From Candidatus Spongiisociaceae bacterium (lineage in GTDB: Bacteria; Actinomycetota; Acidimicrobiia; Spongiisociales; Spongiisociaceae), in assembly GCA_965202665.1 (NCBI GenBank), contig OZ241841.1, positions 1,996,189 to 2,060,188 on the forward strand: 64,000 nt of DNA. The letters are read 5' to 3'. The position numbers were made by a program, and so were the translations under genes. This document shows positions 5,512-40,691 of the stretch, one piece after another; within the stretch, counting starts at the first letter, position 1; each line of letters starts with the position of its first letter. The notes beneath the pieces were generated by a model that was not told where the DNA came from, did no database searches, and saw nothing but the letters and a program-made list of their open reading frames with translations.

Positions 5512-5531
5512 CCCGCGCCGGTCAGGTTTTA
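5508..5531 (+). terminator. hairpin terminator at the ppc stop, between convergent genes
   Basis: CTGACC-CGCGCC-GGTCAG is followed by GTTTTAAAG. It overlaps the ppc stop and the stop of the convergent gene. Confidence 0.45.
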
Positions 5532-7056
5532 AAGTAAACCGCCGTCCGCCGGGACCCTTCCATCCGCAGTCGGCCTTGGTCCCGTAACCGCCGTAGCAGG
5601 TGGGTGGCTCTGGTGGGGTCAATCAGGCACAATTCGGCTACTTCGCTCCGAGTTATGGAGCCGTTGGCCTCCACATAGTTCATCACCAGCCGTTCCCGTC
5701 TGGCCCACCTGCTGGCCCGCTGGTTTAAGCCAGTCCCAGATTCAACTGGATGGATTTGGGGCAACGGCGCTGTTGGGCCTTGGAACTGGTATTCATTTCT
5801 GGCCTCGTAAAATTCCATCAGATCCGACAGGGGAAACCGTTGGCCGTTGCGGCTCCCCTCCCTAAGTTGCCGGACCATTTGCTTGTCGGCCAATCCGGGG
5901 GCGACGCGGGCTACAACCTGGCGTGGGTCGCTACCGCCGTAATCGGGCGGCGGGCGCCCCAGCAACAGCTGTCCCTCAAAAATACGAGCGATGCCCCGTC
6001 CGGTGCGTTCCACCAGGCCGGCCCCTTTGAAAGCATCGACCAGCCGGGGATTGCGCGCCCGGGGAGGAGCGATTATTAGATTGGCGAGGGTTATCCCCTC
6101 CGGAAAGCCGCCGGGGTTGGAGACCGTTAGCGCGCCGTCGCTGATCTGCACCAGCGTCATTCCCTGATCCGCGTAGTCGCGATGGATGAGGGCGTTGGCG
6201 ATCAGTTCGCGGATGGTTACTTCGGCGAAATGAGGCAAACCGATGCGCTGGGAATCGAGATCCATTTCTTCTTCGGAGTTGCGGGCCCGCACCCGGTCGG
6301 ATATTTCCGCCATTGCCTTGAGCAACGGGATGCGCCGTATCTCATTGACCCGTACCTGCAGATGATCCAGCTCTTGAAAGCCGACTTCGTAGGCGGGCAG
6401 ATGTTTGGCGATGGCCTTTTCTTTGCCGAATAACAACAAAGCCCCTACCGTGATGTTTTCCTCCGAGTCGGTGAGGTTCAGGGCTTGCAGAAGGTCATGG
6501 TCGGAGAGACTGGTTAGGGTTTTGTCGCCGTCTGATTCCGCCATCTCCCGGAAACGGGAAAATTCGGCATCGGAAAGATCGCTCTTGGTCGCCGCAGATA
6601 AAGTTACGCTGGAAAAATCCAGCACGCCGATGCTGCCCGCTCGCCCCACCACTTATGGGGCCGCATAGGAAGACACTCCGGTTGCCCGTGTATGTCCAGC
6701 GTTCGGCGTAGGAACTTGCCGGACTTGGTGGAAACAACATCCTGTCCAACCGGGACCTTAACGGCGATCACTTCCTTGCCGTTGATGGGTACCACCTGTA
6801 CGGCGGCATCTACCGCTGGTTCGGTGCGGCTGGCGATCAACGCTTGCAGTCGCTCTGGATCTGTGTGCCTGCCGTGACGAGGTTCAGCTCCGGTGATATT
6901 TCCTTGGTCGTCAACCCCGACCAGAAGCCAGCCTCCGCGTCCGTTGGCTAAACAGACCACCGATTCCACTAGATCCTTGTCGTTTGCGCGACTTTTGAAC
7001 TCGACGTTGAGCGTCTCGCCTTCGGAAACCAGGCCCTGGAGAGTTGTAGTGTCCAT
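5522..7056 (-). pseudogene. AlbA_2 (Schlafen-like) + HATPase_c_4 + C-terminal wHTH putative regulator (RecG-like family), interrupted by a frameshift near 6640..6655
   Basis: Track ORFs 6604..7056 (AlbA_2 N-domain: ETLNVEFKS...VVCLANGRGGWLLVGVDD) and 5522..6652 (ATPase-like plus wHTH) overlap by about 50 nt in different frames. The total span is not a multiple of 3. A join of ...PMRPH|VVGRAGSIGVLDF restores a typical family member. Confidence 0.7.
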
Positions 7057-7298: not shown

Positions 7299-8423
7299 TT
7301 AAAATTTTACGGGGGTGATGAAAGGGAGGGGGTGGGCGACGGCGGTGCGGGGGAGGCCGTCCGCCTCGGTTTGCAGTCGGGTTTCGGGTTGGGCGCAGGG
7401 GCTTTCCACGAACACGTAGCCCAGGTTGGTCTCGAAGCGGGGGGAGTAGCAGGCCGACGTCAACACCCCCACCGTCCGTCCTCCGGCGGTTACCGGGCGG
7501 TGTTCGGGGAAGGCCGTTATAGGCGGGCCGTCGATGTAGGCGCCGGTCAGCAGGCGATGGGGCGGGCGCTCCGCCAACTCCTCCAAGGCGGCCCGTCCCA
7601 CGAAGTCCGTCCCGGGCGGGAACTCAACCAGCCTCCCGAACCCCAACTCGTAAGGGTTCACCGAATCGTTCATGTCGGTTCCGTAGGAAAGAATGCCCCC
7701 CTCCATGCGGCGAATCTGGTTGGGGGAGCCGGGTTGCGCTCCATAGGGTTCCCCCGCCGCGAACACCCGGTCCCACAGCCGCCCTCCCTCCGCTGCATCG
7801 GTCAGGAAAACCTCGTAGCCGAACTCGCCCGACCAGCCGGTGCGCGACACCAAAAGTTCCATTCCGTCCAGACGGGTCCAGGCCGCCCGGTAGTAGCCCA
7901 GGTTGGCGATGTCCTCCCCGAACAGATCGGTCGCCAAAGCTTTTGATTTGGGTCCCTGGATCTGCAGGGGCGAAACGTCGGGCTCGCGCACTTCCACTGC
8001 AAATCCCCGTTCGGCGGCTATGGCCTGCGCCCACAGCAACACATCCCGGTCGGCCAGCGACAGCCAAAACCGGTCTTCGGCCACTCGCAACAACACCGGA
8101 TCGTTCACCACGCCCCCCCGGTGATTGCACAGAAACGTGTAGCGGGCCCGGGCCACCTCCATCCGGGAAACATCCCGGGTGCACAGGTACTGGGTGAGCG
8201 CCAAGGCGTCCCGCCCGCGGATTTCCACCTGCCGCTGGCATCCCACATCCCAGACGGCCACGTCCTCCACCAAGGCCCGGTATTCCTCCAGCGTCCCGGC
8301 GAATCGGCTGGGCAGAATCATATGGTTGTAGACCGTGGCCCCTTTGGCCCCGGCGGCCAAGGCCCGCTCCAAAAAAGGGGAGGGGCGGAGACGGGGGGTG
8401 CGTTCCAGGGCCAGGTCATCCAT
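7299..8423 (-). CDS. aminomethyltransferase (GcvT) family protein, probable THF-dependent demethylase
   Basis: The 374-aa translation has GcvT-fold features (WDVGCQRQVEIRG, LQIQGPKS, SRTGWSGEFGYEVF, RRMEGGILSYGTDM). Confidence 0.8.
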   Translation of the reverse strand: MDDLALERTPRLRPSPFLERALAAGAKGATVYNHMILPSRFAGTLEEYRALVEDVAVWDVGCQRQVEIRGRDALALTQYLCTRDVSRMEVARARYTFLCNHRGGVVNDPVLLRVAEDRFWLSLADRDVLLWAQAIAAERGFAVEVREPDVSPLQIQGPKSKALATDLFGEDIANLGYYRAAWTRLDGMELLVSRTGWSGEFGYEVFLTDAAEGGRLWDRVFAAGEPYGAQPGSPNQIRRMEGGILSYGTDMNDSVNPYELGFGRLVEFPPGTDFVGRAALEELAERPPHRLLTGAYIDGPPITAFPEHRPVTAGGRTVGVLTSACYSPRFETNLGYVFVESPCAQPETRLQTEADGLPRTAVAHPLPFITPVKF

Positions 8424-9576
8424 CAGGTTTCAAATCTCCCGATTCGGAGTCGGCGGGGGCGGAGGATTTCCGGTGGCGGTAGGCCAGCCAGAAGGTAAAG
8501 GCCAAAGCCCCGGTCGCCAGCAGCGAAACCGCTGGCCGCAGGGTGTTGATGCGGTCGAACCACGCTCCTACCAGGGCCACCGTAACCCCGCCGATGGCCG
8601 CCGCGGCGGTCAGTCCCAAGGTTACGGCGCGCAACGCCAACGGCGGGGGCATTTCCCGGTCGGCGGCCAGGCCCATCAATCCCCACACCGGATAGTGGAA
8701 GGCCGCGTAGCAGAGGGCCGTCGCCGCCAAGGCCGCGTATGACCAGAAGTTGGCCGCGGCCAGCAACGCCGCCGTATAGATGGAGGCGGTTACCACTATG
8801 GCGCGCACCGGCCCGGCGCGGTCGGCCAAAGACCCGATGGGGGCGGCCGTCGCCAGAACCGTCAACCCGATCAGCCACCACAGGGCGGCGGCCGCCAACG
8901 GTCCCGCCCCCAACTCGTCGACGGCCGCCACCGTCAAATAGACCCCCATCGTGAAACCGGTTACCGCGGTGGACACCGAGGTGATGATCACCGTCCGTCC
9001 GGCGGTCATCCCCCACACCGCCCGCAACGAACCCGACCGCTCCGGCGGGGGCCCCACCGGGGGGAGGGGCCGCCTGATCATGATGGGGACCGCCGCCGTC
9101 GCTACCGCCGCGCACCCGGCGGCGAACAGGAAGGCCAGTCGCCAATTCTCCGTTCCGGTCAGGGACCAGATGAAGAAACCGTTCAGGGCGGTCCCGATGC
9201 CCGTGCCTGAAGAGGCCATGCTCATCACCAGCCCCCGCCGTTGCGCGTCCGTCACCCGCCCGGCGGACTGCAGGGTGGAGGCCCAGTTGAGGGGGGCCGA
9301 CATACCGAGGGTGACCACGCACAGGGCCAGCACCGGGGCGGAACGGACCGACGACACCAAGAGAAGCCCGGCCCCGGTCAGGGCGTAGGTTCCCATCAAC
9401 AGCCTCCGCAAACCGAAGCGGGCCGCCACCCGGGGGGTCAGGGCCGCCCCCAGGCTGTAGGCGAACATGGCGGCCGACACCGCCAAGCCCAGCGCCCCGT
9501 AGCCGGAGTCCATGGAACGCGAGATGCGGGGCAACATGGCGGGAATCAAACCCATCCCGAACCCGTGGGTGACCAT
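8416..9576 (-). CDS. MFS transporter (YbfB/YjiJ-like)
   Basis: The 386-aa protein is polytopic and hydrophobic. The in-frame upstream sequence (..LKAPAAGVLFGWGI) is also TM-like but has no ATG/GTG/TTG. The true start may therefore be non-canonical, for example CTG at 9633 overlapping the upstream TGA. Confidence 0.7.
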   Translation of the reverse strand: MVTHGFGMGLIPAMLPRISRSMDSGYGALGLAVSAAMFAYSLGAALTPRVAARFGLRRLLMGTYALTGAGLLLVSSVRSAPVLALCVVTLGMSAPLNWASTLQSAGRVTDAQRRGLVMSMASSGTGIGTALNGFFIWSLTGTENWRLAFLFAAGCAAVATAAVPIMIRRPLPPVGPPPERSGSLRAVWGMTAGRTVIITSVSTAVTGFTMGVYLTVAAVDELGAGPLAAAALWWLIGLTVLATAAPIGSLADRAGPVRAIVVTASIYTAALLAAANFWSYAALAATALCYAAFHYPVWGLMGLAADREMPPPLALRAVTLGLTAAAAIGGVTVALVGAWFDRINTLRPAVSLLATGALAFTFWLAYRHRKSSAPADSESGDLKPDG

Positions 9577-9629
9577 GATCCCCCAACCGAAGAGAACCCC
9601 GGCCGCCGGAGCTTTGAGACGGGGCCCGG

Positions 9630-10580
9630 TCAGGAGCGGGCCCTCCGCAGAACTTCGTCGATGGGGGTGGATGCCAAGTCGCCCACCTCCTGCACGTATT
9701 CATACCCGAACCGCCCTTTGATGCACAGGTGGCCGGAGGTTATCGCATGGTCCATGGGGGAAGTCACCTTGACGATCCGGTTGTCCTGCACATGCAGTTC
9801 CAGGTTGCAGCCCACCCCGCAGTAGGAGCAGACGGTCCGCGTCACGGTCTGACGTTCCTCCGCCCACATCTCCGCCTCCCGCAGTTCGTGTTCGCTGCGG
9901 AACATAAGAGCCCCGGTGGGGCAAACCCCGATGCAGTTACCGCAGAACACGCAGGCCGAGTCGGTCAGCCCGGTGTCGAATTCGGTGGAAATGCGGGCCT
10001 CGAATCCCCGCCCTGCCACCGCGATGGCGAATGTATTCTGGGCGTCTTCGCCGCAGGCCTCTACGCACTTGTAGCAGAGTATGCACCGGGAATAGTCCCT
10101 GATGTACAAGGCGTTGTCCACTTTTACCGGTTGCCGCACGGTTTCCGCCTCCTGTCCGTTGACGGGGGGATGATGGCCCGCCGTCCGCCGATCGCGGTCC
10201 TCGGCGGGGGGAGCGGGCGGCCCATAACGGCGCGGGTCGCATCCGTACTCTTCCATCCAGCGGCGGGTTTCCCCGTCTACCAGATCCAGGTCCGTGGAGG
10301 AGGCCAGAAATTCCAGCACCATACGCCGGGAAAGACGCACCCGTTCGCTGTCGGTGAAGACCGCCATCCCCTCCTCCGCCGGGCGGCTGCAGGAGGGGAT
10401 CAGGGTGCGGGAGCCCTCCACTTCCACCACGCACACCCGGCAGACGTTCACCGGGGTCAAGTTTTCCAGATAGCAGAGGGTGGGTTGACCGAGGCCCGCC
10501 GTCCGGCAGGCGTCCAGAATGGTGTCCCCGGCGGCGACGGTCACCTCCGTTCCGTCGATGGTGATGGTCGTTTCACCCAT
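9630..10580 (-). CDS. formate dehydrogenase Fe-S subunit: NuoG-like 2Fe-2S plus 4Fe-4S domains ending with the Mo-enzyme N-terminal 4Fe-4S motif (N-terminal part of a canonical FdhA/FdsA)
   Basis: ITIDGTEVTV..TLCYLE..NVCRVCVVEV is the 2Fe-2S region. CILCYKCVEAC and CVFCGNCIGVCP are ferredoxin motifs. CSYCGVGCNLELHV...GHLCIKGRFGYEYV is the MopB 4Fe-4S domain, after which the protein ends. Confidence 0.85.
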   Translation of the reverse strand: MGETTITIDGTEVTVAAGDTILDACRTAGLGQPTLCYLENLTPVNVCRVCVVEVEGSRTLIPSCSRPAEEGMAVFTDSERVRLSRRMVLEFLASSTDLDLVDGETRRWMEEYGCDPRRYGPPAPPAEDRDRRTAGHHPPVNGQEAETVRQPVKVDNALYIRDYSRCILCYKCVEACGEDAQNTFAIAVAGRGFEARISTEFDTGLTDSACVFCGNCIGVCPTGALMFRSEHELREAEMWAEERQTVTRTVCSYCGVGCNLELHVQDNRIVKVTSPMDHAITSGHLCIKGRFGYEYVQEVGDLASTPIDEVLRRARS

Positions 10581-12375
10581 CGCCCGACTCCAACAGTCCC
10601 AGTTCCGCCGCCGACCGGATGGCGGAGGAGGCGGTGTGCCCCAGTCCGCAGATGGAAGCGTCCGCCATCACCTGCGCCACATCCGAGAACAGATCCCACT
10701 CCCACTCCCCTCCGGCCAGGCGCCGTTCCAGCAGTTCTTCCTGCCGCACCGTTCCCACCCGGCAGGGGACGCACTGCCCGCACGATTCGTCCCGGAAGAA
10801 ACGGGCGATGCGGCGCGCGGCGTCTCCAAAGTCGGTTCCGGGCCCGAACGCGCACACCACCCCCGACCCCAGGGTCGCCCCCCGGGCCCGGGCGTCCTCG
10901 AAGGTGAGGGGCATGTCAAACTGGTCGGGGTCGACGAACACCCCCGCCGCCCCGCCCAGCAGAACCGCCGCCGCCCCGCCCCCGACGGTTCCGCCCGCCT
11001 TTTCCAGCAACCCGCCCAAGGTTTCCCCGAACTCCACCTCGTACAGCCCCGGCCGCCCCACATCCCCCGCTAGGCAGAACAATTTGGTTCCGGTGGAATC
11101 GGGGGTTCCCACCGCCGCGAAGGCCGCCCCTCCCCGCAATACGATTTCCGGCACGTTGAGCAAGGTTTCCACGTTGTTAATGACCGTGGGCCGCCCGAAC
11201 AGCCCCGCTACGGTGGGGAAAGGGGGCTTGTTGCGGGGCTCGCCCCGCTTGCCCTCGATGGAATTCATCAGGGCCGTTTCCTCCCCGCAGATGTAGGCCC
11301 CGCCGCCCCGCCGGATCTCAATGTCAAACGCCCGTCCCGACCCGGCGACGTCGTTTCCCAGCAGGCCGGCCCGCCGCGCCCCGGCTACGGCCTTCTCCAT
11401 TCTTTCCGTCGCCAAAGGATACTCGGCCCTTATGTACAGGTATCCGATCTCCGCCCCCACGGCCAGCCCGGCGATGGTCATGGACTCCGTCAGGGCGAAC
11501 GGGTCGCCTTCCATCAAAACCCGGTCTTTGAAGGTGCCCGGCTCGGACTCGTCGGCGTTGCAGATCAGATAACGGGGGCGGTCGGGGGAGCGGGCCACCG
11601 CCTCCCATTTGATCCCGGCCGGGAAAGCCGCCCCGCCCCGCCCCCGCAACCGGGAGGCCTTGACTTCTTCGATAACCCGCTCCGGGCCGATTTCGATCGC
11701 CCGGCGCAGGGCCGCGTAGCCCCCCGTCCGCCGATAATCATCCAGCGAAAGGGGATCCGCCGTCCCTATTCGGCGCAGCAACCGCAACCCGGCCTCACCC
11801 TGTTGGGGAAGGGGCGGCGGGGCCGGGGGAGGGGGGGCTTCCGAGTCGAGGCAGGCCGCCACATAAGCGGCGTCGGCCCCGGTCGCGGCCAAGTCGCGCC
11901 TACCCGCCCGTTGGATGAAAGCGGCCGGGGCCCGGTCGCACTGGCCCAGGCAGGGGCTGGGATGGACATCGCCCCGCCCCCGCAGCGAAGCCAGAATCTC
12001 CGTACCGCCCCTCCGCCGGCACACTACGTCGTCGCAGATGTGGGCCACCCGGCGGGGACGTTCCGTCAACGACAGCAGAGCGTAGAAACTGGCCACTCCG
12101 TAGGCTTCCGCCGGGGGGACGATCAGCCGCTCGCATATGTAATTGAGGGCCCCCCGGCTGATCCAGCCCACTTGATCGGAAACGGCGTGCAAAGCGGGGA
12201 GCAACAGATGTCGTCGTTCGATCATGCGCCGGTATCCACCCGGGGCGGTGCGCATCATCGGCGAGGGGCCGGCCTCCCCGTTTTCGGCCGGGTTCGCCCC
12301 CTCCTCCGTTGCGGGCGCGCCCAAGAGCCGGTCGACCGCCTCCCGCTCCTCGGCGGTGGGGGCGGCGGACATCAA
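10573..12375 (-). CDS. NAD(H)-binding formate dehydrogenase subunit, NuoE-like/NuoF-like fusion
   Basis: The N-terminal half resembles NuoE (ASFYALLSL...HICDDVVC...CLGQCDRAPA). The C-terminal half resembles NuoF (GRGGAAFPAGIKW, CNADESEPGTFKDR, ESCGQCVPCR). Confidence 0.9.
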   Translation of the reverse strand: MMSAAPTAEEREAVDRLLGAPATEEGANPAENGEAGPSPMMRTAPGGYRRMIERRHLLLPALHAVSDQVGWISRGALNYICERLIVPPAEAYGVASFYALLSLTERPRRVAHICDDVVCRRRGGTEILASLRGRGDVHPSPCLGQCDRAPAAFIQRAGRRDLAATGADAAYVAACLDSEAPPPPAPPPLPQQGEAGLRLLRRIGTADPLSLDDYRRTGGYAALRRAIEIGPERVIEEVKASRLRGRGGAAFPAGIKWEAVARSPDRPRYLICNADESEPGTFKDRVLMEGDPFALTESMTIAGLAVGAEIGYLYIRAEYPLATERMEKAVAGARRAGLLGNDVAGSGRAFDIEIRRGGGAYICGEETALMNSIEGKRGEPRNKPPFPTVAGLFGRPTVINNVETLLNVPEIVLRGGAAFAAVGTPDSTGTKLFCLAGDVGRPGLYEVEFGETLGGLLEKAGGTVGGGAAAVLLGGAAGVFVDPDQFDMPLTFEDARARGATLGSGVVCAFGPGTDFGDAARRIARFFRDESCGQCVPCRVGTVRQEELLERRLAGGEWEWDLFSDVAQVMADASICGLGHTASSAIRSAAELGLLESGDG

Positions 12376-12383
12376 CCGCAGGT

Positions 12384-14284
12384 CTATGGGGAAACTCCGT
12401 GCGGGACCGCCCGCTCAATGCGCACCGCGGTGGCTTTGAACTCGGAGGTGCCCGATTTTGGGTCCCAGGCGTCGGTGGTGAGCAGGTTGACATCCGCTTC
12501 GTCCGGGTCGTGGCAGCTCATAAAAGCCAACCCGCCCGCAACGACCGATGGAAGAACACCGGAACGGCGATGGAACCCCGGCGGGAGATGACATTCACCA
12601 GCTCGCCTTCCCGCAGTCCCATATGCTCCCCGTCCTCGGGGGCGATTTCCACCGCCGCCGCACCCCGCAAGGGAGAGTCGTATCCCGCCGACTGCACCCC
12701 GGTGTTGTAGGAGTCCAAGCGGCGGCCGGTGGTGAGGCGGATCGGGTATTCCCCGGACAGGCCGTCGCGCGGGGGGGCCCAAGGGGCGGGTGTGAAAGAG
12801 GCGGGCGGGCGGGTCAGGGGGCGCTCCCACAGGTCGCCGTGCAGGAACTGCGTGCCGGGATGCTTCTCGTCCGGGCAGGGCCACTGAATGCCCCCGGACG
12901 ACTCCAACCGGGTATAGGACATTCCGCGGTGCATGGGGGACAGGCTGCGCACTTCTTCCCACACTTCCTCGGCGGAGGGGAAACCCCACCCGCGGCCCAT
13001 CCGTTCCGCCAACCCGGAGATGATGTCCAGGTCGTCCCGGGCCTGGCCGGGGGGGTGAAGGGCCCGGCGCACCCGTTGCACCCGTCGCTCCGAGTTGGTG
13101 ACGGTGCCTTCCGATTCGGCCCATCCGGCGGCGGCCGGCAACACCACATCGGCCATTTGGGCGGTGCGGGTCAGGAAAATGTCCTGCACCACCAGAAAAT
13201 CCAGGCCTTCCATAACTTCCCGGACATGGGCGGCCCGGGCTTCGGACTGGGCCGGGTTTTCCCCGATGATGTACAGGCCGGTCAGTTCCTTGCGTTCCAT
13301 CGCCTCCAGCATGAGGGTGAGGTGCCAGCCGATGCGGGGCGGGACGGGCGCTCCCCAGCGGGTTTGGAACGGGGCGCGGAGGTCCGGGTCCTCCACATCT
13401 TGGAAACCGGGCAGTTTGTTGGGTATGGCTCCCATATCGCCCCCGCCCTGCACGTTGTTCTGCCCCCGCAACGGAACCAGGCCCGAACCGTAACGGCCCA
13501 CATGCCCGGTGAGCAGGGCCAAGTTGATCAGGGACAGCACGTTGTCGGTGGCGTTGTGATGTTCGGTGATGCCCAATGTCCAGCAGATCTGGGCTGATTT
13601 GGCTGTTGCGTAATCGCGGGCCATCTGTTGGATGACGGCCGCCGGGACGCCGGTCACCTGCTCGCCGCGCCGCAAAGTCCACTCGTCCACCGCCGCCGCG
13701 TAGCCGTCGAATCCGGTGGTGGAGCGGGAAATGAAGTCCGAGTTATGCAGGCCGGCCGCGATTATCTCCCGTCCCACCGCGTTGGCTAAGGCGATGTCCG
13801 ACCCCACGTCGATTCCCAGCCAGGTATCCGCCCACTTGGTGGAGCTGGTGCGACGGGGATCCACCGCGTACATTTTCGCCCCCGCCCGCAAGCCCCGCAT
13901 CAGGTGGTGAAAAAAGATGGGGTGCGCCTCGCGGGCGTTGGAACCCCACAACAGAACCAGGTCGGTGGTTTCGATTTCTTGGTAGGAGGAAGTTCCGCCT
14001 CCCACTCCCAGCGCGGTCGCCAGACCGGCGACCGAAGGAGCGTGTCAGGTGCGGTTGCAGGAGTCGATGTTGTTGGACCCCATCACCGCCCGGGCGAACT
14101 TCTGCGCCAGGTAGTTGACCTCGTTGGTGGCCTTGGAGCAGGAAAACATCCCAAAGTCATTACCCCGGTGCCCGGACAGCCCGCGGGCCGCCTCATCCAG
14201 GGCTTGTTCCCATGAGGCCTCCGTCAACTCCCCGCCGCGTCGCACCAAAGGCGCGGTCAGCCGGACATTGTACGGTTTTGCCAT
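12384..14284 (-). CDS. formate dehydrogenase catalytic molybdopterin subunit with in-frame UGA (selenocysteine) and an apparent 1-nt frameshift near 12529..12537
   Basis: Track ORFs 14045..14284 and 12518..14005 share one frame and are separated only by TGA 14045..14047. This gives ..NIDSCNRT-U-HAPSVAGLATALG, the Sec/Cys active-site motif of FdhA/FdhH. The conserved C-terminus (GLAFMSCHDPDEADVNLLTTDAWDPKSGTSEFKATAVRIE) is read in another frame, at the tail of track ORF 12384..13682. Confidence 0.8.
14015..14047 (-). promoter_or_regulatory. UGA codon plus SECIS-like hairpin
   Basis: The mRNA reads UGA-CACGCUCCUUC-GGUCGCC-GGUCU-GGCGACC. A perfect 7-bp stem with a GGUCU loop starts 11 nt after UGA. 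It uses a GGU Gly codon that looks uncommon in this window. Confidence 0.65.
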
Positions 14285-14345
14285 TTTTCACCTCCTTCCC
14301 CGGGAAATTTCCCGCGCCGGATTGGGGATGGGCTCCCCCCGGCTC

Positions 14346-16112
14346 TCAGAACAGGCCGACGATGCGCCCCTCCTCGTCCAGATCCACATCCATGTAGGCG
14401 GGTTTGGTTCCCAGCCCCGGCATAGTGCGGATCTCGCCCAGCAAGGGCACCAGGAAACCGGCCCCCACCGCCGCCCGCACTTCCCGCACCGGTACGGTGA
14501 ACCCGGAGGGGCGCCCTTTCAGGGTGGGGTCGTGGGACAGGGAAAGGTGGGTTTTGGCCATGCAAACGGGCAGGTAGCCGAACCCGGTGCGTTCCAAGTC
14601 GGCGATCTGCCCGTTGGCGGCCGGGGAGTACTCCACCCCGGCCGCTCCGTATACGTCGCGGGCCACGGCCTCTATTTTTTCCTTGATGGACAACTCCAGA
14701 GGATACAGGAAACGGAAATCCCGTTCGCCCTGCGCCGCATCCGCCACCGCCTCCGCCAAGCGCAAAGCCCCCTTCCCCCCCTCGGCCCAGTGGTGGGCGG
14801 TGACGGCGGCCGTCGCCCCCGATTCGAGGGCCGCCCGTTCCACCGCCTCCAACTCGTGCTGCGTGTCGGTGGGGAAGGCGTTCACGGCCGCCACCACCGG
14901 CACTCCGAAGCGCCGGGCGGTCTCAATGTGCGCCGTCAGGTTGCCCAAGCCGGCCTGCAGCAACGGCAGGTTCTCCTGGGTGTAAGCCGAATCCAATCTC
15001 CGCCCCGCCACCACCCGCGGTCCCCCCCCGTGGGTTTTCAAGGCGCGGACGGTGGCCACCAAAACCACCGCATCCGGCGCCAGCCCCGAAGCCCGGCATT
15101 TGATGTTGAAGAACTTCTCCATTCCCATATCGGCCCCGAACCCGGATTCGGTTACCACGTATTCTCCCAGATGCAGGGCCAGCCGATCGGCCAGGATGGA
15201 GGAGTTGCCGTGGGCGATGTTGGCGAACGGCCCGGCGTGCACGAAGGCCGCTTGGCCCTCCAGGGTTTGCATGAGCGTGGGATGCAGGGTGTCTTTCATC
15301 AAAACCGCCACCGCCCCCGCCACTCCCACATCGTCCAAGGTGATCGGTTCGCCGGCCTTGTTGCGGCCGATTACCACCCGCCCGCAACGTTCCCGCAGGT
15401 TGCGCAGGGCGGAGGGGTAATCGTTGCCGTCTGCCAAGGCCAAGATGGCCATCAGTTCGGACGCCACCGTGATGTCGTATCCGGTTTCCCGGGGGCGCCC
15501 GTCCAGTCGCCCGCCCAACCCGACCACGACGTTGCGCAGCGAACGGTCGTTTATGTCAACCACCCGCCGCCATTCGGTGCGGAACACGTCGATGTCCAGC
15601 CTTTCCAAACCGACCGCCTCCAGTTGATCATCGGACATGCGCCGTTCGTGGTACCAGCGGGCGTCGATGGCGGCCGCGGCCAGGTTGTGGGCGGCGCTTA
15701 TGGCGTGGATGTCCCCGGTCAGGTGCAGGTTGAACTCGTCCATGGGGACCACTTGGCTGTAGCCGCCCCCGGCCGCCCCCCCTTTGATGCCGAAGGTGGG
15801 GCCCATGGAGGGCTGGCGGATGGCGGCGACGGCCCGTTTGCCCAACGCCCCCAGGCCCTGGGTGAGGCCGATGGTGGTGGTGGTTTTGCCTTCTCCCAGC
15901 GGGGTGGGGGTGATGGCGGTTACGTCGATGTATTTGCCCGTCGGACGGGAGCCAACTCGTTTCAGGATGTCCAAGTGCACTTTTGCTTTGGCGTGCCCGT
16001 AGGGGATCAGCTCGTCCGGTTCTATGCCCACCGAGTCGGCGACTTCGGTTATCGGACGCACCCGGGCCGCTTGGGCGATGGCCAGGTCGGAGGGTACTTT
16101 GGCGTAGGGCAT
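14346..16112 (-). CDS. fhs: formate--tetrahydrofolate ligase
   Basis: The true start is ATG 16112..16110, preceded by AAGGAAG. MPYAKVPSDLAIAQ...TPTPLGEGKTTTTIGL... is canonical Fhs. The first 111 codons of track ORF 14346..16445 are not coding. Confidence 0.95.
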   Translation of the reverse strand: MPYAKVPSDLAIAQAARVRPITEVADSVGIEPDELIPYGHAKAKVHLDILKRVGSRPTGKYIDVTAITPTPLGEGKTTTTIGLTQGLGALGKRAVAAIRQPSMGPTFGIKGGAAGGGYSQVVPMDEFNLHLTGDIHAISAAHNLAAAAIDARWYHERRMSDDQLEAVGLERLDIDVFRTEWRRVVDINDRSLRNVVVGLGGRLDGRPRETGYDITVASELMAILALADGNDYPSALRNLRERCGRVVIGRNKAGEPITLDDVGVAGAVAVLMKDTLHPTLMQTLEGQAAFVHAGPFANIAHGNSSILADRLALHLGEYVVTESGFGADMGMEKFFNIKCRASGLAPDAVVLVATVRALKTHGGGPRVVAGRRLDSAYTQENLPLLQAGLGNLTAHIETARRFGVPVVAAVNAFPTDTQHELEAVERAALESGATAAVTAHHWAEGGKGALRLAEAVADAAQGERDFRFLYPLELSIKEKIEAVARDVYGAAGVEYSPAANGQIADLERTGFGYLPVCMAKTHLSLSHDPTLKGRPSGFTVPVREVRAAVGAGFLVPLLGEIRTMPGLGTKPAYMDVDLDEEGRIVGLF

Positions 16113-16265
16113 GGGCTTCCTTGCTGAGGATGCGTTGCGGATGCGAAATTTCATATTACCACGATACGGAACAGTTCCGCATTGCGGTACGGGCGGGTTT
16201 CCCGCCCGCAAACGCCTGCAAAAATAAAACCGGGATACTAGGGTGTAGCCAACTGGGCGGTTAGG

Positions 16266-17534
16266 ATGGGCAAGGGGGGCGAACATGCCGCGGGAGAGAG
16301 GAGCGGAGTGTCTGAATCTAACGGGGACGCTATCGTCCGCTTGGAGAACGTATATAAGATTTTCGGGCCGCAACCGCACGGTCGGGCTTTTGACCTGACG
16401 CGGTCCGGAGTCGGCAAAGACGAGGTGTTGCGGCAGTCGGGGCATGTGGTGGGCCTCAACGATGTAAACTTTTCAGTTCACCAAGGGGAGATTTTCGTGG
16501 TGATGGGTTTGTCTGGATCGGGCAAATCCACCGCCATCCGCACCGTCAACAAGTTGTTCCACACCACCTACGGACATGTGTGGGTGGACGGAACCGATGT
16601 GCAGACTTTGGACGGCAAAACCTTGCAATCGTTTCGCCGGGAGAAGATGGGGATGGTGTTTCAGCATTTCGCCCTCTTCCCGCATCGGACGGTCATCTAC
16701 AACGTGGGCTACGGGCTGAAAGTGCAGAAGGTGGACAAAAGGGACCGGGATGCGGCTTCTATGAAAGCGCTGTCCCTGGTGGGGTTGGAGCCCTACGCCG
16801 ACAACCTGCCCCGGGAACTGTCGGGGGGCATGCAGCAACGGGTGGGCTTGGCCCGGGCGCTGGCCTCCGACCCTGACATTTTGCTGATGGACGAAGCCTT
16901 CTCCGCGTTGGATCCGCTTATCCGCCGCCAGATGCAGGACGAGATGATGGAAATCCAGAACGAGTTGCACAAGACCATTCTGTTTATCACCCACGATCTG
17001 AACGAGGCCCTGCGCATCGGGGATCGGGTGTGCATCATGAAAGACGGAGCGGTGGTGCAAATCGGCACCCCCGAGGAAATACTGACCGAACCCGCCACCG
17101 GTTACGTGGCCGAGTTCGTCCAAGATGTGGACCAGGGGCGGGTAATCGAAGTGCGGGAGGTAATGACCCGGCCCGATCCGTTGCAGGCCGGAATGACCCT
17201 GACGGAGGCGGTGTCCCACATCGGGGACCGCACCGGGGCCTTCGTGGTGGATGGGGACGGCCGTCCCGCCAGCCTGCTCACCCTGTCCGACGCGTTGCGG
17301 GCCGCCGGGACGGGATCCTCCGACATGAGCGCCGCCCTGCGCCAGGACTTCGACCAGACCGACGTCCACACCTGCCTGAACTCGGTGTACGCCGCCGCCG
17401 GACGGGGGTTGCCGATAGCGGTGGTGGACGAGTCGGGGGTGTTGGTGGGCAACCTGGATCCCCGGTTGATCATGGAGGAGATGGGACGGGTGGAGCAACT
17501 AATCGACGGCTTTGAACGGGAGACGTTCCTATGA
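16266..17534 (+). CDS. proV: glycine betaine/proline ABC transporter ATP-binding protein with C-terminal CBS domains
   Basis: Walker A GLSGSGKST, signature LSGGMQQRVGLARAL, Walker B ILLMDEAFSALD and a CBS-like tail. An alternative in-frame start is GTG 16308, behind GAGAGGAG. Confidence 0.9.
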   Translation: MGKGGEHAAGERSGVSESNGDAIVRLENVYKIFGPQPHGRAFDLTRSGVGKDEVLRQSGHVVGLNDVNFSVHQGEIFVVMGLSGSGKSTAIRTVNKLFHTTYGHVWVDGTDVQTLDGKTLQSFRREKMGMVFQHFALFPHRTVIYNVGYGLKVQKVDKRDRDAASMKALSLVGLEPYADNLPRELSGGMQQRVGLARALASDPDILLMDEAFSALDPLIRRQMQDEMMEIQNELHKTILFITHDLNEALRIGDRVCIMKDGAVVQIGTPEEILTEPATGYVAEFVQDVDQGRVIEVREVMTRPDPLQAGMTLTEAVSHIGDRTGAFVVDGDGRPASLLTLSDALRAAGTGSSDMSAALRQDFDQTDVHTCLNSVYAAAGRGLPIAVVDESGVLVGNLDPRLIMEEMGRVEQLIDGFERETFL

Positions 17535-19708
17535 GTTGGATAACCAGGTTCGCCAATTTGCTGGCCCAGGCCGGCGGCGCCGAAGGAGTTGAAGGGGGGG
17601 TGGGAATTCGGGACAACAAATTGTTGGACGAGTGGCGCATACCTTTTGGCGACTGGGCCGAACAAGCGGTTTTCTGGATGGACAACAACCTGCAGACCCT
17701 GCTGGATATCGCCAACTGGCCTTTTGAAAGGATGATCAGCTTCCTGGTGCGGGACATTCTCAGCAACGTGTCCTGGGTGTGGGTGGTGCTGGTGATGATG
17801 ATCGTCGCCACCCTGGTGCGCAACATCAAAGTGGGGGTGTTCGTGGGGGTGTCCCTTTTCATATGCGGAATCTTGGGAGACATTTATTGGCTGGAGACGG
17901 CCCGCACTATCGGGTTCGTAGGGGTGGCGGTGGTGTTGTGCGTGATCGTGGGGATACCGATCGGCATCGCCTGCGGCCGGTTTGACGGCATCTGGAAGGT
18001 GGTGCGGCCGGTTTTGGACGCCATGCAGGTTATCCACTCCTTCGTCTATATGTTGCCGTTTATTTTCTTCTGGGGAATCGGCGAGGTGTCGGCCACGATG
18101 GTAACCATGGTGTTCGCCCTCCCTCCGCTAATCCGCCTCACCAATCTGGGAATCCGCCAAGTGCCCGCCGATGTGGTGGAAGCCTCCCGGGCCTACGGGG
18201 CTTCGGAACGGAGGGTGTTGTTCGATGTTCAGATTCCGCTGGCCCGGCCCGCCATTATGACCGGCATCAACCAAACCTTGTTGCTGTCCATTTCCATGTT
18301 GGGAATCGCCGCCATTATGGGGGCGGGGGGTTTGGGGCGCCTGCTGTTCCAAGCCATCAACAACCAGGACGTATCCCAAGCGGCCGCCGCCGGGTTGGCT
18401 TTCTTTTTGGTGGCGGTGGTGCTGGACCGGATGTCCCAGCGGGAGGAAACCGATTCCGCCAACCTGTTCCGCCGCATCCGCCTGGCTTGGGCGCACCGTC
18501 GCGACCCGGAGGTCCTGCTGGAGAATCAAGAGGCCTCCGCAGTGGTCAAGTTCAAGGAAACCCACCGCTACGCTCCGGTGACGGCCGCCGAGCGCCTGCC
18601 GATGGTGCTGGCCGTGGCGGGCGGCGCCTTGGCTTTGTTGTCGGTGTTTCTGCCTTGGACCGCCGATGCGGGCAAGATGAGCGCTTACGGACGATGGGCG
18701 GATCTTTCCACGGAAGGCGAGATGGCGGGGATGGTGTTCAGCGGTTTGCATTCCTCCGGAGGCAGCTGGTTCGGCATTTCCATTCTGTTTTTCAGCATTT
18801 TCGCCATTTTGGCGGTGATCGTAGGCTGGGCCCGTCCGGGGCGCGGTCCCCGCTGGCTGGCGGCGGATGGAGCGGTGATCGCCTCCTTGGGGATTTTGAT
18901 TCTGGCCGTCGCTCATTTGCTGGCCCGGCCCGCCTCCGCGTCCATTCCCAACGCTCTGCATCCCGGTACCGGACTGGGGGTGGTTTTGGCGTTGGCGGGG
19001 GGCTTGGCGGCGGTCGCCGGGTCCATTTGGTGGATGTGGTTAGCCGATCACACCCCGTTGCACCCGCTCCGCTCCGAGGTGGCTTGGGGCAGGTTGATCG
19101 GGGCGGGGGTGGCTATTTTGGTTTTGGTAATAGGAATGTTTTCCGGTTGGAGTTTCGACGAACGGGAACGGGAAATCATCACTCCGGAATTGCAGGCGCA
19201 GATCGATCAACTGATGTGGGAGGCGGAGCAACCGGGGGCCGACTTGGGGGCGATCGCCACTGAGTTGCTGGTGTTGCGGGCGAAGGCCATCCGTTCGGAG
19301 CGATTGGTAACGGACGGGTTGAGCAGCCAAGGACCGGGTTTGGGCCTGTGGGGGCTGATCGTCGGGGCGCTGGGGTTTTTGGCCAGTCTGTTCGCCATCG
19401 GCCTATTCGGTTCCGATGAACGAAGACTCTGGCATTGGAGCACGATTACGGCCGGGTTGGGGATGGGAGCCGCTTTGATCGGATTCGCCTGGGTTTTCAC
19501 CCATGTCCGGTCGGCCGACCCCAACTATCTGACCGGAATCGGGGCCTTTTTAACCATGGCCGGCGGAATGTTCCTGGTGGCTTCCAACATGTCGGTGCTG
19601 AAAGAGTTCCGACGAGCCAAGGTGTACGACGATCCTCAAGTTGAATCAGGGCCGGACGGCCAAGCGGCGGAGCAGACCGCAGAGGAGCGGGCGGAGGCCC
19701 TGGTTTGA
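17531..19708 (+). CDS. proW: glycine betaine ABC permease (ProW/OpuAB-like, about residues 1-300) fused to a ~400-aa C-terminal domain with ~8 predicted TM helices
   Basis: The N-terminal part has the BPD permease EAA region (EASRAYGASERRVLFDVQIPLARPAIMTGINQ). The remainder is hydrophobic helices plus one ~60-aa charged helical loop and an acidic tail. There is an ATGA overlap with proV. Confidence 0.85.
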   Translation: MSWITRFANLLAQAGGAEGVEGGVGIRDNKLLDEWRIPFGDWAEQAVFWMDNNLQTLLDIANWPFERMISFLVRDILSNVSWVWVVLVMMIVATLVRNIKVGVFVGVSLFICGILGDIYWLETARTIGFVGVAVVLCVIVGIPIGIACGRFDGIWKVVRPVLDAMQVIHSFVYMLPFIFFWGIGEVSATMVTMVFALPPLIRLTNLGIRQVPADVVEASRAYGASERRVLFDVQIPLARPAIMTGINQTLLLSISMLGIAAIMGAGGLGRLLFQAINNQDVSQAAAAGLAFFLVAVVLDRMSQREETDSANLFRRIRLAWAHRRDPEVLLENQEASAVVKFKETHRYAPVTAAERLPMVLAVAGGALALLSVFLPWTADAGKMSAYGRWADLSTEGEMAGMVFSGLHSSGGSWFGISILFFSIFAILAVIVGWARPGRGPRWLAADGAVIASLGILILAVAHLLARPASASIPNALHPGTGLGVVLALAGGLAAVAGSIWWMWLADHTPLHPLRSEVAWGRLIGAGVAILVLVIGMFSGWSFDEREREIITPELQAQIDQLMWEAEQPGADLGAIATELLVLRAKAIRSERLVTDGLSSQGPGLGLWGLIVGALGFLASLFAIGLFGSDERRLWHWSTITAGLGMGAALIGFAWVFTHVRSADPNYLTGIGAFLTMAGGMFLVASNMSVLKEFRRAKVYDDPQVESGPDGQAAEQTAEERAEALV

Positions 19709-21258
19709 TCCCCCCGCCCCGCCGGGCTGAGCTACCGGGCGGCGAGCGGGACCGGGTTGCAGTTCGGCTGGAGGGCATTTCCAAACGGTTTCCGGGCGTG
19801 GTGGCTAACGACGACATCAACTTGGAGGTGGAAAAGGGGGAAATTCACGCCATCTGCGGGGAGAACGGGGCGGGTAAGTCCACGCTGATGAAAATCCTCT
19901 ACGGAATGCAACAACCGGACGAAGGCCGTATTGAGATTATGGGGGAGGAGCGGCGATTTTCCTCCCCCAAGGACGCCATCGGTTTGGGGATTGGGATGGT
20001 GCATCAGCATTTTATGCTGGCCGACAACCTGACCGTGTTGGAAAACGTAATTCTGGGAGCGGAGCCGGTGATCGCCGAGGTGATTAATTTCGCCGACGCC
20101 CGGGCCCGGTTGAGCGAGTTGGGGGAGGCGTACGGGCTGAAAGTGGGATTGGACGACCGGGTGGACACGTTGGAGGTGGGGGAGCGGCAACGAATAGAAA
20201 TCATCAAAATCTTGTACCGGGGGGCCCAGATTCTGATTCTGGATGAGCCGACCGCGGTGCTGGTCCCCCAAGAAGTGGAGGAGTTGTTCCGCAATATGCG
20301 GGAGTTGAAAGCCCAGGGACACACCTTGATTTTCATCGACCACAAACTGGACGAGGTGTTGGAAATCGCCGACACCATCAGCGTGTTGCGGGGCGGCCGG
20401 TCGGTGGCGACCGTCAAACCGGAGGAGGTGACCGCCGGGGACTTGGCGGAGCTGATGGTCGGTTCGGAACTGCCCAAGCCCGCCACCACTTCCACCACCG
20501 TAACCGACCGGGCGGTAGTGGAAGCCTCCGATGTTTCGGCGGTGGACGAGGAGGGCGTGGAACGTTTGAAAGGGGTCAGTTTCACGGTGCACGCCGGGGA
20601 GATTGTGGGGGTGGCCGGCGTGGAGGGCAACGGCCAGGCGGAACTGATAGAGGTCCTCCTGGGGATAACTCCGGCCGCCGCCGGCCGGATTTTCCTGCAC
20701 GGCGAGGACGTAACCGAGCTGTCGGTGCGCAAGCGCCGGGAGGCGGGACTGGGGTACATAGCCGAGGACCGCCAACGGAGGGGGCTTCTGCTCACTTCCC
20801 CGGTGTGGGAGAACGCCATTTTGGGTCATCAGACCCGTCCCGAGTTCGTGCGCTCCCGGGTGTGGATCAACGAACGGTCCGCCCGTCGCCATTCCGCCGG
20901 AATGGTGGACCGGTTCGATGTGCGCACCCCGGGGGTGGACACCCCCATTCACGCCCTGTCCGGCGGCAACCAGCAGAAACTGGTGGTGGGGCGGGAAATG
21001 TCGGTGGACTGCAATCCGTTGATAGCCGCCCATCCCACCCGGGGGATAGACGTGGGTTCGCAGGCCGCCATCTGGGAGGATTTGCGGGCCGCCCGGCGGG
21101 GCGGGCAAGCGGTTTTGCTGGTCTCCGCCGACCTGGAGGAGTTGATCGGATTGAGCGACTCCCTGCTGGTGATGCTTAGGGGGGAGATAGCGGCCCGCCT
21201 GGATCCTTCCCGGATCACCCCCCGCCAGTTGGGGGCCTATATGACGGGGGCGGCGTGA
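19705..21258 (+). CDS. ABC transporter ATP-binding protein, duplicated ATPase (BMP/nucleoside or sugar type)
   Basis: Two ABC cassettes (GENGAGKST ... LSGGNQQK). The TTG start overlaps the upstream stop (TTGA). The exact start is uncertain. Confidence 0.85.
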   Translation: MIPPPRRAELPGGERDRVAVRLEGISKRFPGVVANDDINLEVEKGEIHAICGENGAGKSTLMKILYGMQQPDEGRIEIMGEERRFSSPKDAIGLGIGMVHQHFMLADNLTVLENVILGAEPVIAEVINFADARARLSELGEAYGLKVGLDDRVDTLEVGERQRIEIIKILYRGAQILILDEPTAVLVPQEVEELFRNMRELKAQGHTLIFIDHKLDEVLEIADTISVLRGGRSVATVKPEEVTAGDLAELMVGSELPKPATTSTTVTDRAVVEASDVSAVDEEGVERLKGVSFTVHAGEIVGVAGVEGNGQAELIEVLLGITPAAAGRIFLHGEDVTELSVRKRREAGLGYIAEDRQRRGLLLTSPVWENAILGHQTRPEFVRSRVWINERSARRHSAGMVDRFDVRTPGVDTPIHALSGGNQQKLVVGREMSVDCNPLIAAHPTRGIDVGSQAAIWEDLRAARRGGQAVLLVSADLEELIGLSDSLLVMLRGEIAARLDPSRITPRQLGAYMTGAA

Positions 21259-22397
21259 GAGCGGCGGTCCGCATCGTGGGTCCGCCGGTGGCGGCCCTGC
21301 TGTTGGCGGCGGCGGTGGCCGGGTTGATACTCTTGATCTCCGGGGCCAATCCGCTGGTGGCCTTCGGCAACGTGTGGGAGTACGGTTCCCGGTTGGAAAC
21401 CCTGCTGGAATCTTTGAACCGGGCCACTCCGCTCTACATTTCCGGGATCGCCTTCGCCATCGCCATGCGGATGAACCTGTTTCAAATCGGGGTGGAAGGG
21501 CAGTACATTCTGGCCGCCTTCATGGCCGCTTACGTGGGGGCGGCGGTGGGGCCCCTGTTCCCCCCCCTGCACATCGCCATTATCCTGCTCACCGCCATGG
21601 CGGTGGGGGCGGCCTGGGCGGGTTTGGCCGGGTTGATGAAAATCACCCGCAACGTGCACGAGGTCATCTCCACCATAATGCTCAACGCCATCGCCGTGGC
21701 GGGGGTGGTCTCCTTTCTGCTGGGCCGGTGGGCCATCCCGTTGGAGTCGCTGGACACCCGCTTGGCCGACATTCCCGAAACCGGATGGTTTCCCAGCCTC
21801 AACCCGGTGGTGGAATGGTTCACCCGCGACATCAGACGGGTGGATCTGACCTCTTTCATCTTGGTGGCGGCGGCGGTGGGGGTGGTTTACCACTTGCTGG
21901 TCAACCGCACCCGGCTGGGTTACGACCTGCGGGCCACCGGGGTCAATCCGTGGGCGGCGGAGGCCAGCGGGGTGCCTCCCAAGCGGACCATCATGCTGGC
22001 CATGTTGCTGAGCGGGGCGGTGGCGGGCTTGGTGGGGATGGCCGACCTGTTGGGCGACCAGTATTTCTACAGCCTGCGCTTCCCGCAAGGTTTGGGTTTC
22101 ACCGGCATCGCGGTGGCGTTGGTGGGGCGCAACCACGCGGTGGGGGCGGCCTTTGCCGCCGTCGCCTTCGGCTGGCTGGAGCGGGCCTCCGGGGTGTTGG
22201 AAGTTCGGGGCGACGCTCCGCGGGAGGTGGTCACCATTATGGTGGGGGTGGTGATCCTGTTCGCGGTGATCGCCTACGCCTTGGCCCAGCGCCGGCGCCG
22301 AATTGAAGCGGCGGCCGCGGCCGCCGACCAGATGAAGGAACGGGCCGTCGTCCGGGTCGGGGGATCGGGGGACGACGGGCGGGAGGCTGACATATGA
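21255..22397 (+). CDS. ABC transporter permease (BMP-family system, YufP-like)
   Basis: A 380-aa polytopic protein with a GTGA overlap to the ATPase gene. Confidence 0.8.
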   Translation: MRAAVRIVGPPVAALLLAAAVAGLILLISGANPLVAFGNVWEYGSRLETLLESLNRATPLYISGIAFAIAMRMNLFQIGVEGQYILAAFMAAYVGAAVGPLFPPLHIAIILLTAMAVGAAWAGLAGLMKITRNVHEVISTIMLNAIAVAGVVSFLLGRWAIPLESLDTRLADIPETGWFPSLNPVVEWFTRDIRRVDLTSFILVAAAVGVVYHLLVNRTRLGYDLRATGVNPWAAEASGVPPKRTIMLAMLLSGAVAGLVGMADLLGDQYFYSLRFPQGLGFTGIAVALVGRNHAVGAAFAAVAFGWLERASGVLEVRGDAPREVVTIMVGVVILFAVIAYALAQRRRRIEAAAAAADQMKERAVVRVGGSGDDGREADI

Positions 22398-39500: not shown

Positions 39501-40691
39501 ATGGGGAAGCCGAGGTTTGAGCGTTCGAAGCCGCATGTGAATGTGGGGACGATGGGTCATATTGATCATGGGAAGACGACGTTGACGGCGGCGGTGACGC
39601 GGGTGTTGGCGGAGCGGGTGGGGGGTGTGAATGTTTTTTCGGCGTTTGATGAGATTGATAAGGCTCCGGAGGAGCGGGAGCGGGGGATTACGATTTCGAT
39701 TGCGCATGTGGAGTATGAGACGGAGAGTAGGCATTATGCGCATGTGGATATGCCGGGGCATGCGGATTATATTAAGAATATGATTACGGGGGCGGCGCAG
39801 GTGGATGGGGCGGTGTTGGTGGTGTCGGCGGCGGATGGTCCGATGCCGCAGACGAGGGAGCATGTGTTGTTGGCGAGGCAGGTGGGGGTGCCGTGTGTGG
39901 TGGTGGCGTTGAATAAGGTGGATTTGGTGGATGATGGGGAGTTGTTGGATTTGGTGGAGTTGGAGGTGCGGGAGTTGTTGGGGGAGTATGGGTTTGATGG
40001 GGATGGGGCTCCGGTGGTGCGGGTGTCGGCGTTGGGGGCGTTGGAGGGTGATGTGGGGGCGGGGGATGGGGTGATGGAGTTGTTGGGGGCGGTGGATGAG
40101 TTTGTGCCGGTGCCGGAGCGGCCGGTGGATTTGCCGTTTTTGATGCCGATTGAGGATGTGTTTTCGATTACGGGGCGGGGGACGGTGGTGACGGGGAAGG
40201 TGGAGGCGGGGGTGTTGCGGGTGGGGGGGGATGTGGAGGTGGTGGGGATTAGGGAGACGAGGAGGTCGGTGGCGACGGGGGTGGAGATGTTTCGTAAGTT
40301 GTTGGATGAGGGGAGGGCGGGGGATAATGTGGGGGTGTTGTTGCGGGGGGTGGGGAAGGATGAGGTGGAGCGGGGGCAGGTGTTGGCGGCTCCGGGGTCG
40401 ATTACGCCGCATACGGTGTTTGAGGCGCAGGTGTATGTGTTGACGAAGGAGGAGGGGGGGAGGCATAATCCGTTTTTCTCGGGTTATCAGCCGCAGTTTT
40501 ATTTTAGGACGACGGATGTGACGGGGAAGGTGGAGTTGCCTGGGGGGGTGGAGATGGTGATGCCGGGTGATAACACGACGATGACGGTCACGTTGGGGTC
40601 TCCTATTGCGATGGACGAGGGTTTGCGGTTCGCCATCCGGGAGGGGGGCCGCACGGTGGGGGCGGGCACCGTCACCCAAATCCACAAGTAA
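39501..40691 (+). CDS. tuf: elongation factor Tu (codon usage highly anomalous, see findings)
   Basis: AGGAGG lies 8 nt upstream. [31 protein letters not shown]...[23 protein letters not shown]... Confidence 0.95.

Follow-up and report, generated by a model that had tools for sequence, protein, structure and literature searches.

A predicted selenocysteine codon and downstream SECIS element in the fdhA gene of an uncultured acidimicrobial lineage

A 64,000-nucleotide (nt) stretch of DNA from a Candidatus Spongiisociaceae bacterium (assembly GCA_965202665.1, contig OZ241841.1, positions 1,996,189 to 2,060,188; hereafter the window) encodes a three-gene formate dehydrogenase (FDH) operon, whose fdhA gene for the molybdenum (Mo) subunit contains an in-frame TGA. 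The translation of fdhA on the minus strand starts with MAKPYNV at ATG 14284, reaches NNIDSCNRT, encounters the TGA (14047..14045) as codon 80, and continues in the same frame as HAPSVAGLATALG. In the transcript this UGA is followed, after 11 nt (CACGCUCCUUC), by the hairpin GGUCGCC-GGUCU-GGCGACC at 14033..14015. An earlier reading made from the letters of the window (the sequence-only reading) had noticed both the interruption of the frame within the motif SCNRT-U-HAPSVAGL and the hairpin 11 nt downstream of it, and had proposed that they constitute a selenocysteine (Sec) codon with its selenocysteine insertion sequence (SECIS). Both features are borne out by the window translation and sequence, and the proposal itself is upheld by the register-conserved, covarying hairpin, its absence from cysteine-bearing orthologues and the alignment of the TGA with known Cys and Sec positions, as described below.

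The TGA aligns with Sec140 of Escherichia coli FDH-H (CARV-U-HGPSVAGL) and with a cysteine in the full-length orthologues from Saccharopolyspora, Thermopolyspora, Streptomyces and Actinacidiphila, which read DSCNRTCHAPSVAGL at this place; this agrees with the earlier statement that FDHs carry either Sec or Cys here. The homologous proteins come in two classes, namely those of ~520-550 residues that start just past the TGA and full-length versions of ~635-650 residues, the actinobacterial representatives of which are 62-65% identical to the window protein over 98% of its length. Comparisons with five relatives of the same lineage yielded dN/dS values of 0.12-0.30 for the 79 codons upstream of the TGA and of 0.13-0.23 for 500 codons downstream of it. 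Both flanks are thus under purifying selection and, therefore, both are translated in this frame. A scan of the window for in-frame TGAs in coding-like context recovered TGA 14045 as the sole case besides the one at 52562, which is an ordinary junction of two same-frame genes. A reassignment of UGA was considered and rejected, as UGA terminates 13 of the 19 window genes that were checked.

The locus could alternatively specify two polypeptides, i.e., a 79-residue product terminated by the TGA and another of ~540 residues re-initiated at GTG 14005, and gene callers indeed split every relative into pieces of 76-79 and 519-554 residues. However, neither product would then contain the invariant HAPSVAGL...G segment that lies between the TGA and the GTG, and the metal-ligand position would be lost with it. 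The stretch from the TGA to the called start stays in frame and is conserved. Moreover, GTG 14005 is not preceded by a properly spaced Shine-Dalgarno sequence, and the Cys orthologues are single proteins of 633-650 residues. We hence consider two separate products to be highly improbable and view the split as a matter of annotation: in every TGA-type relative with gene calls that we examined the enzyme is broken at the Sec codon, so that protein databases lack the active-site segment for a clade spanning about ten phyla.

Bacterial SECIS elements typically have a stem of 6-8 base pairs (bp) and a conserved G in the loop about 20 nt after the UGA (PMC4605307), and the window hairpin conforms to this rule with its 11-nt spacer, 7-bp stem and loop Gs at +19/+20. 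The structure predicted by RNAfold has a hairpin of 7-8 bp stacked on a lower helix, with an energy of -29.1 kcal/mol (z = -2.0 against dinucleotide shuffles). On the two strands of the window taken together it is the only hairpin with a GGUCU loop and a stem of at least 6 bp; 0.49 such hairpins are expected by chance (0.155 for stems of at least 7 bp). The Rfam SECIS_3 model (RF01989) aligns over its full length (model positions 1-59) with 13992..14050 and places the UGA, the GUCU loop and both the upper and the lower helix in register (22.6 bits, E = 0.009 in a 351-nt search). The apex of the hairpin uses a GGT glycine codon; as the sequence-only reading had suspected, this codon is uncommon in the window, being the rarest glycine codon at about 9-12% of all glycine codons in the confident genes.

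We compared homologous DNA from relatives of the window lineage and from 80 loci of GTDB species genomes, all of the latter being at most 66% identical to the window, among the matches listed; the loci counted are those carrying SCNRT[*/C]HAPS, which comprise 46 with TGA and 10 with TGT or TGC. The hairpin is present in register in all 46 TGA loci, with a stem of 6-7 bp and a loop of 5 nt that reads GGUCU in 45 of them and GGGCU in one, while it is absent from all 10 TGT/TGC loci. Likewise, the apex glycine codon is GGT in 45 of the 46 TGA loci as against one of the 10 Cys loci. The TGA loci are annotated as belonging to about ten phyla in all, with Actinomycetota, Acidimicrobiia, Chloroflexota (Chloroflexia), Acidobacteriota, Methylomirabilota, Dormibacterota, Verrucomicrobiota, Planctomycetota, Gemmatimonadota, Eisenbacteria and Sulfobacillus among the annotations, and the Cys-codon loci come from Streptomyces, Nonomuraea and Sphaerisporangium. 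The comparison of TGA with TGC among orthologues, which had been put forward as a check of the Sec reading, thus separates the two classes cleanly.

Base-pairing in the hairpin was examined in an alignment of 43 distinct sequences. Pairing in the upper helix amounts to 94%, and compensatory changes occur at three of its pairs: pair 21/33, formed by the synonymous third positions of a Val and an Ala codon, is C-G in 40 sequences and G-C in three, with no mismatches; at pair 24/30, 42 sequences have C-G and one has G-C; and pair 23/31 varies between U-G, C-G and U-A. The covariation score of 0.213 was reached in none of 500 shuffles (0.128 +/- 0.009), and slid partners gave only 0.03-0.10. Pairing in the lower helix reaches 91%, and one of its pairs has changed on both sides. 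These patterns bear on the possibility that the hairpin is a by-product of encoding V-A-G-L-A-T in a GC-rich gene, with the UGA being read through or reassigned by some other route. That the GC-rich Cys-type orthologues fold with similar energy in this region, and that the z-score of the fold is modest, would fit such a view. However, the register, the loop sequence and the pairing are kept only in the company of TGA, the synonymous third positions at 21/33 and 24/30 covary without a single mismatch, the apex codon prefers GGT in the TGA loci despite the rarity of this codon, and UGA is a normal stop in the window, so the code is not reassigned. We accordingly regard a mere coding by-product as exceedingly improbable, and the earlier suggestion that the apex GGU reflects selection on the RNA gains support from the same observations.

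A covariance model was built from the orthologues with at most 66% protein identity, with the window lineage held out. It matches the window at 13994..14050 (minus strand) with 66.2 bits (E about 8e-11), this being the sole strong match in the window, and gives an affirmative outcome to the search of 13990..14050 that had been advised. Other held-out TGA loci score 58-72 bits, while the Cys loci score 31-48 bits at the homologous site because they share the coding sequence. Together with the SECIS alignment, this model would recover the genes that have been mis-split at the Sec codon.

Two orthologues depart from the common form of the hairpin. The GGGCU loop mentioned above belongs to a Methylomirabilota locus (L005, 5259 onward) and represents a natural SECIS variant in which the TGA is retained. 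A metagenome-assembled genome (MAG; L002, 9968 onward) has a U-U mismatch at the third stem pair from the base, caused by a change of ACC to UCC (Thr to Ser), and also retains the TGA.

Certain observations weigh against reading the UGA as a Sec codon with a SECIS. First, selA, selB, selC and selD are all absent from the 64-kb window, as had been remarked earlier: ARAGORN detected no tRNA gene within it, and tblastn searches of the window with E. coli SelA, SelB and SelD returned no match to SelA or SelD, the sole SelB-like match being EF-Tu at 39501..40691. Second, an Rfam scan of the whole window gave no match at the gathering threshold; the 22.6 bits of the SECIS_3 alignment fall short of its gathering score of 63, so that the element lies outside the family by Rfam's own membership cut-off. 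Third, the stem is a perfect 7 bp and lacks the unpaired U that bulges from the stem in E. coli fdhF. This bulge is specific to E. coli fdhF and is not known to be a defining feature of bacterial SECIS elements in general. Fourth, the fold z-score is only -2.0, and, the region being GC-rich, the mean hairpin energy is the same in TGA-type and Cys-type loci (about -11 kcal/mol); energy by itself thus fails to discriminate, and we rejected it as a discriminator. Finally, the window copy of fdhA has a frameshift that removes the conserved C-terminus, and the gene may be non-functional in this strain. Weighing these points against the conservation, covariation and selection documented above, we hold it very likely that, for the species, UGA 14047..14045 is a selenocysteine codon with a downstream SECIS. 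Our confidence that this particular copy yields a functional FdhA is lower because of the frameshift.

The frame that the sequence-only reading had delimited as 14284 to 12518 is indeed a single continuous frame containing the TGA; its end, however, is unnatural, being the result of a single-nucleotide deletion near 12530, where the window has CGGGCGGG-TTGG. Four relatives (L001, L002, L086 and L089) are one base longer here, and CGGGCGGGGTTGG is present in three conspecific contigs that are 97-99% identical in nucleotide sequence (L093, L095 and L097). As sequenced, the fdhA frame stops at 12518, whereas in the relatives the open reading frame (ORF) extends to the equivalent of 12384. Once the base is restored, the C-terminus (LAFMSCHDPDEADVNLLT...AVRIER) aligns perfectly with those of the relatives and contains many invariant residues. 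The part following the TGA is called as an intact protein of 540 residues in six independent conspecific assemblies, one of which is a 2.76-Mb HiFi-style contig (ERZ25070167:ctg394322_383.36x_l) that matches the window at 98.9% nucleotide identity. Programmed frameshifting at 12530 was rejected, as all relatives are in frame there. We also observed a second window-specific 1-nt deletion at 6654 (CATGAAG to CATAAG), which splits a gene with SLFN_AlbA_2 and HATPase_c_4 domains (7056..5522, minus strand) into ORFs of 150 and 376 residues; the gene is intact, with 511 residues, in five of the six conspecific contigs. The occurrence of two single-G deletions unique to the window in about 44 kb of comparable sequence suggests that both are assembly errors. 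The deletion at 12530 is, accordingly, most likely such an error, and otherwise a strain-specific inactivation.

The deletion also raises the possibility that fdhA is a pseudogene, with the TGA being a nonsense mutation and the 3' frameshift a second lesion. This would account for the truncated C-terminus of the window copy; the second gene split by a window-specific deletion (7056..5522) provides a parallel, and pseudogenes of fdhA that retain the SECIS are reported from some mycobacteria (bioRxiv 10.64898/2026.03.03.709296, PMC13449736). However, the TGA is common to the 46 orthologous loci from about ten phyla and to the six conspecific assemblies, purifying selection operates on both sides of it, the hairpin covaries, and the frameshift is unique to the window, with the conspecific contigs, including the HiFi assembly, reading GGGG. 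It follows that the TGA is no lesion and that there is at most recent damage to the copy of this strain; a pseudogene is hence quite improbable. If the deletion at 12530 were nevertheless real, which we deem unlikely, the window would hold a selenoprotein gene at the start of decay, with the UGA and the SECIS intact, the C-terminal cap domain truncated, and FDH being perhaps the main or only reason for keeping the Sec machinery. The sel genes would then be expected to be relaxed or lost in this strain and intact in its 99%-identical conspecific strains.

Decoding is expected to follow the model of E. coli fdhF and Moorella fdhA: SelB would bind the hairpin with its GGUCU loop through the C-terminal winged-helix domains, and SelB-GTP-Sec-tRNA(Sec) would thereby be placed at the ribosomal A site when the UGA arrives, such that Sec would be inserted in competition with termination by release factor 2 (RF2). 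The resulting Sec80 is predicted to be the selenolate ligand of Mo (or tungsten) in the bis-pyranopterin guanine dinucleotide (bisPGD) cofactor of the catalytic subunit. The enzyme would be a cytoplasmic FDH of three subunits (FdhA, FdhB and FdhC), presumably NAD+-linked, in which electrons from formate would pass through the iron-sulfur (FeS) subunit FdhC to the FMN/NAD site of FdhB. It would be co-transcribed with formate-tetrahydrofolate (THF) ligase, encoded by the adjacent fhs gene (Table 1).

The domain architectures of the subunits show that the catalytic subunit is split relative to the canonical layout. Pfam profiles detect Molybdopterin and Molydop_binding domains in FdhA and no FeS domain. 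The NCBIfam profile TIGR01591 (Fdh-alpha) matches FdhA from profile position 53 to 672 with 621.4 bits, short of its equivalog cut-off of 666.25, and profile positions 1-53 (Molybdop_Fe4S4) map instead to residues 249-301 of the separate FdhC. The shortfall is hence due to the FeS domain having been split off rather than to divergence. The closest solved relatives of FdhA are FdhF of the Thermoanaerobacter hydrogen-dependent carbon dioxide reductase (HDCR; 7QV7), the Methanospirillum Fdh (7BKB) and E. coli FDH-H (1AA6, E = 4.5e-129), all three of which align from just past their Fe4S4 domain. Judging from these domain matches, the FeS domain missing from FdhA is probably contributed in trans by FdhC.

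Table 1. Features of the FDH locus and of the adjoining fhs gene (coordinates within the window).
Feature	Coordinates	Strand	Basis or remark
fhs, formate-tetrahydrofolate ligase	14346..16112	-	Pfam FTHFS, E = 1e-247; directly upstream of fdhA, same orientation
Shine-Dalgarno motif GGAGG	14291..14295	-	6 nt upstream of ATG 14284; read from sequence; motif also in L001 and L002
fdhA, formate dehydrogenase Mo-bisPGD subunit without N-terminal FeS domain	12384..14284	-	633 codons after frameshift repair
UGA, predicted selenocysteine at the active-site Mo ligand position	14045..14047	-	aligns with orthologue Cys and E. coli Sec140
SECIS upper stem-loop, 7-bp stem and 5-nt loop GGUCU	14015..14033	-	loop G residues +19/+20 after UGA
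Extended SECIS with lower helix	14004..14041	-	GCUCC 14041..14037 pairs with GGAGU 14008..14004 (RNAfold minimum free energy)
Window-specific 1-nt deletion, GGGG to GGG	12530..12533	-	shifts frame, removes last ~48 conserved residues
fdhB, NuoE-NuoF fusion (2Fe-2S, FMN/NAD site, 4Fe-4S), 599-600 residues	10573..12375	-	Pfam; NCBIfam nuoF/nuoE
fdhC, 316-residue FeS subunit (Fer2_4, 2x4Fe-4S, Molybdop_Fe4S4; NuoG-type)	9630..10580	-	Pfam, TIGR01591

The order Mo subunit, NuoEF subunit, FeS subunit recurs in all orthologues of at least 55% identity that were fetched, wherever the locus extends that far, and it holds for Sec-type and Cys-type loci alike, in about ten phyla. In more distant homologues (41-46% identity) the NuoEF gene comes first and is followed by an FdhA with the FeS part fused upstream of the Mo domain. 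The gene order of the window type is thus a cyclic permutation of the canonical layout, with the catalytic subunit split. The split itself has been described before, for FDH3 of Actinomycetospora chiangmaiensis (PMC7176365). In the literature, we found no discussion of the breadth of this split across phyla or of the permutation pattern.

The closest described counterpart in layout is FDH3 of A. chiangmaiensis DSM 45062, a cytoplasmic Sec-FDH comprising FdhA3 (640 residues, U80, no FeS domain), the NuoE/NuoF-like FdhB3 (614 residues) and the FeS protein FdhC3 (316 residues) (PMC7176365, Rohwerder et al. 2020). In that organism formate removal is selenium-dependent, the FDH3 subunits were detected in the proteome, and bSECISearch predicted a SECIS just past the UGA (PMC7176365). 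The window enzyme shares this three-subunit layout, with proteins of 633 (U80), 600 and 316 residues; the likeness to FDH3 (WP_084681743.1, WP_018332443.1 and WP_018332444.1) is drawn from the published description. In contrast to A. chiangmaiensis, the window host belongs to an uncultured lineage that is probably Actinomycetota-related. Its RpoB recurs unchanged on ENA metagenome scaffolds of the PANK22-1 series and is only 72-73% identical to the nearest named proteins, which come from Acidimicrobiia MAGs. The window operon differs from that of FDH3 in being joined to fhs and to a betaine-transporter/GcvT neighbourhood, and this copy has the 3' frameshift.

The E. coli fdhF gene (NC_000913) has at codon 140 a UGA followed by CACGGCCCAUC (11 nt) and GGUUGCAGGUCUGCACC, and the 11-nt spacing and GGUCU apex that the sequence-only reading had given for it hold true. 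The two genes share the homologous position of the UGA, the spacer length, the GGUCU loop lying in the Gly-Leu codons of SVAGL, and the H-x-P-S-V-A-G-L register, and their catalytic domains are homologous (1AA6). They differ in that E. coli FDH-H is a single polypeptide with its own Fe4S4 domain, and in that the E. coli SECIS has a shorter upper stem (GGUUGCA/UGCACC) with an unpaired U, as opposed to the perfect, GC-rich 7-bp stem of the window. The covariance model of the window family gave no match to E. coli fdhF at E <= 10. The SECIS of Moorella thermoacetica fdhA likewise combines a GGUCU loop with a perfect, GC-rich stem. In its complex with the SelB WH3-4 domains (PDB 1WSU, 2UWM) the hairpin is recognised via the apical loop, and the window element fits the general stem and loop-G rule (PMC4605307); however, the Moorella enzyme belongs to another FDH subfamily and another phylum.

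Among bacterial selenoproteins FdhA is the most widespread, and exchanges between Sec and Cys in it are well documented (PMC1794560). The arrangement of UGA and SECIS and the three-subunit Sec-FDH are already known (PMC7176365); what is new is one more uncultured lineage that uses them. The window hence adds a lineage to the users of Sec-dependent, cytoplasmic, NuoEF-coupled FDHs, and changes no concept.

Genes for the Sec machinery are found next to orthologous operons elsewhere. A Chloroflexia MAG (L016, 4366..8182) has selB, selA, tRNA-Sec (UCA) and a divergent selD directly upstream of its FDH, in a Geodermatophilaceae MAG (L017, 9775..9868) the tRNA-Sec gene precedes fdhA by about 130 nt, and two further loci (L010 and L043) carry selD. 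The sel cluster and the tRNA-Sec gene beside the FDH in the first two of these are consistent with the Sec trait having been transferred together with the FDH. Along with the purifying selection on the two flanks of the TGA, this adjacency of the Sec machinery to orthologues provides strong indirect evidence for the Sec reading.

The synteny of fhs and fdhA is kept in L001, L002, L086, L088, L089 and L092-L097. The mechanically derived fhs ORF (14346..16445, minus strand) extends 111 codons beyond the conserved start MPYAKVP at 16112, and the relatives are called with 586-603 residues; the N-terminal extension is probably not translated. A larger neighbourhood, 7299..23671, is conserved in all of these loci other than L088, and contains an OpuA-like ABC transporter of the glycine-betaine type with a CBS-domain ATPase, fhs and the FDH operon, as well as a major facilitator superfamily (MFS) transporter and a GcvT-like aminomethyltransferase. 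Taken together, this neighbourhood resembles a module for the oxidation of methyl groups and one-carbon units via THF to formate and then to CO2.

Farther away on the plus strand, the rpoC ORF (31069..35925) encodes an unusually long beta-prime subunit of 1618 residues, for which an equal length is called on a conspecific scaffold (L091); the ORF of 118 residues downstream of rpoC has no Pfam match.

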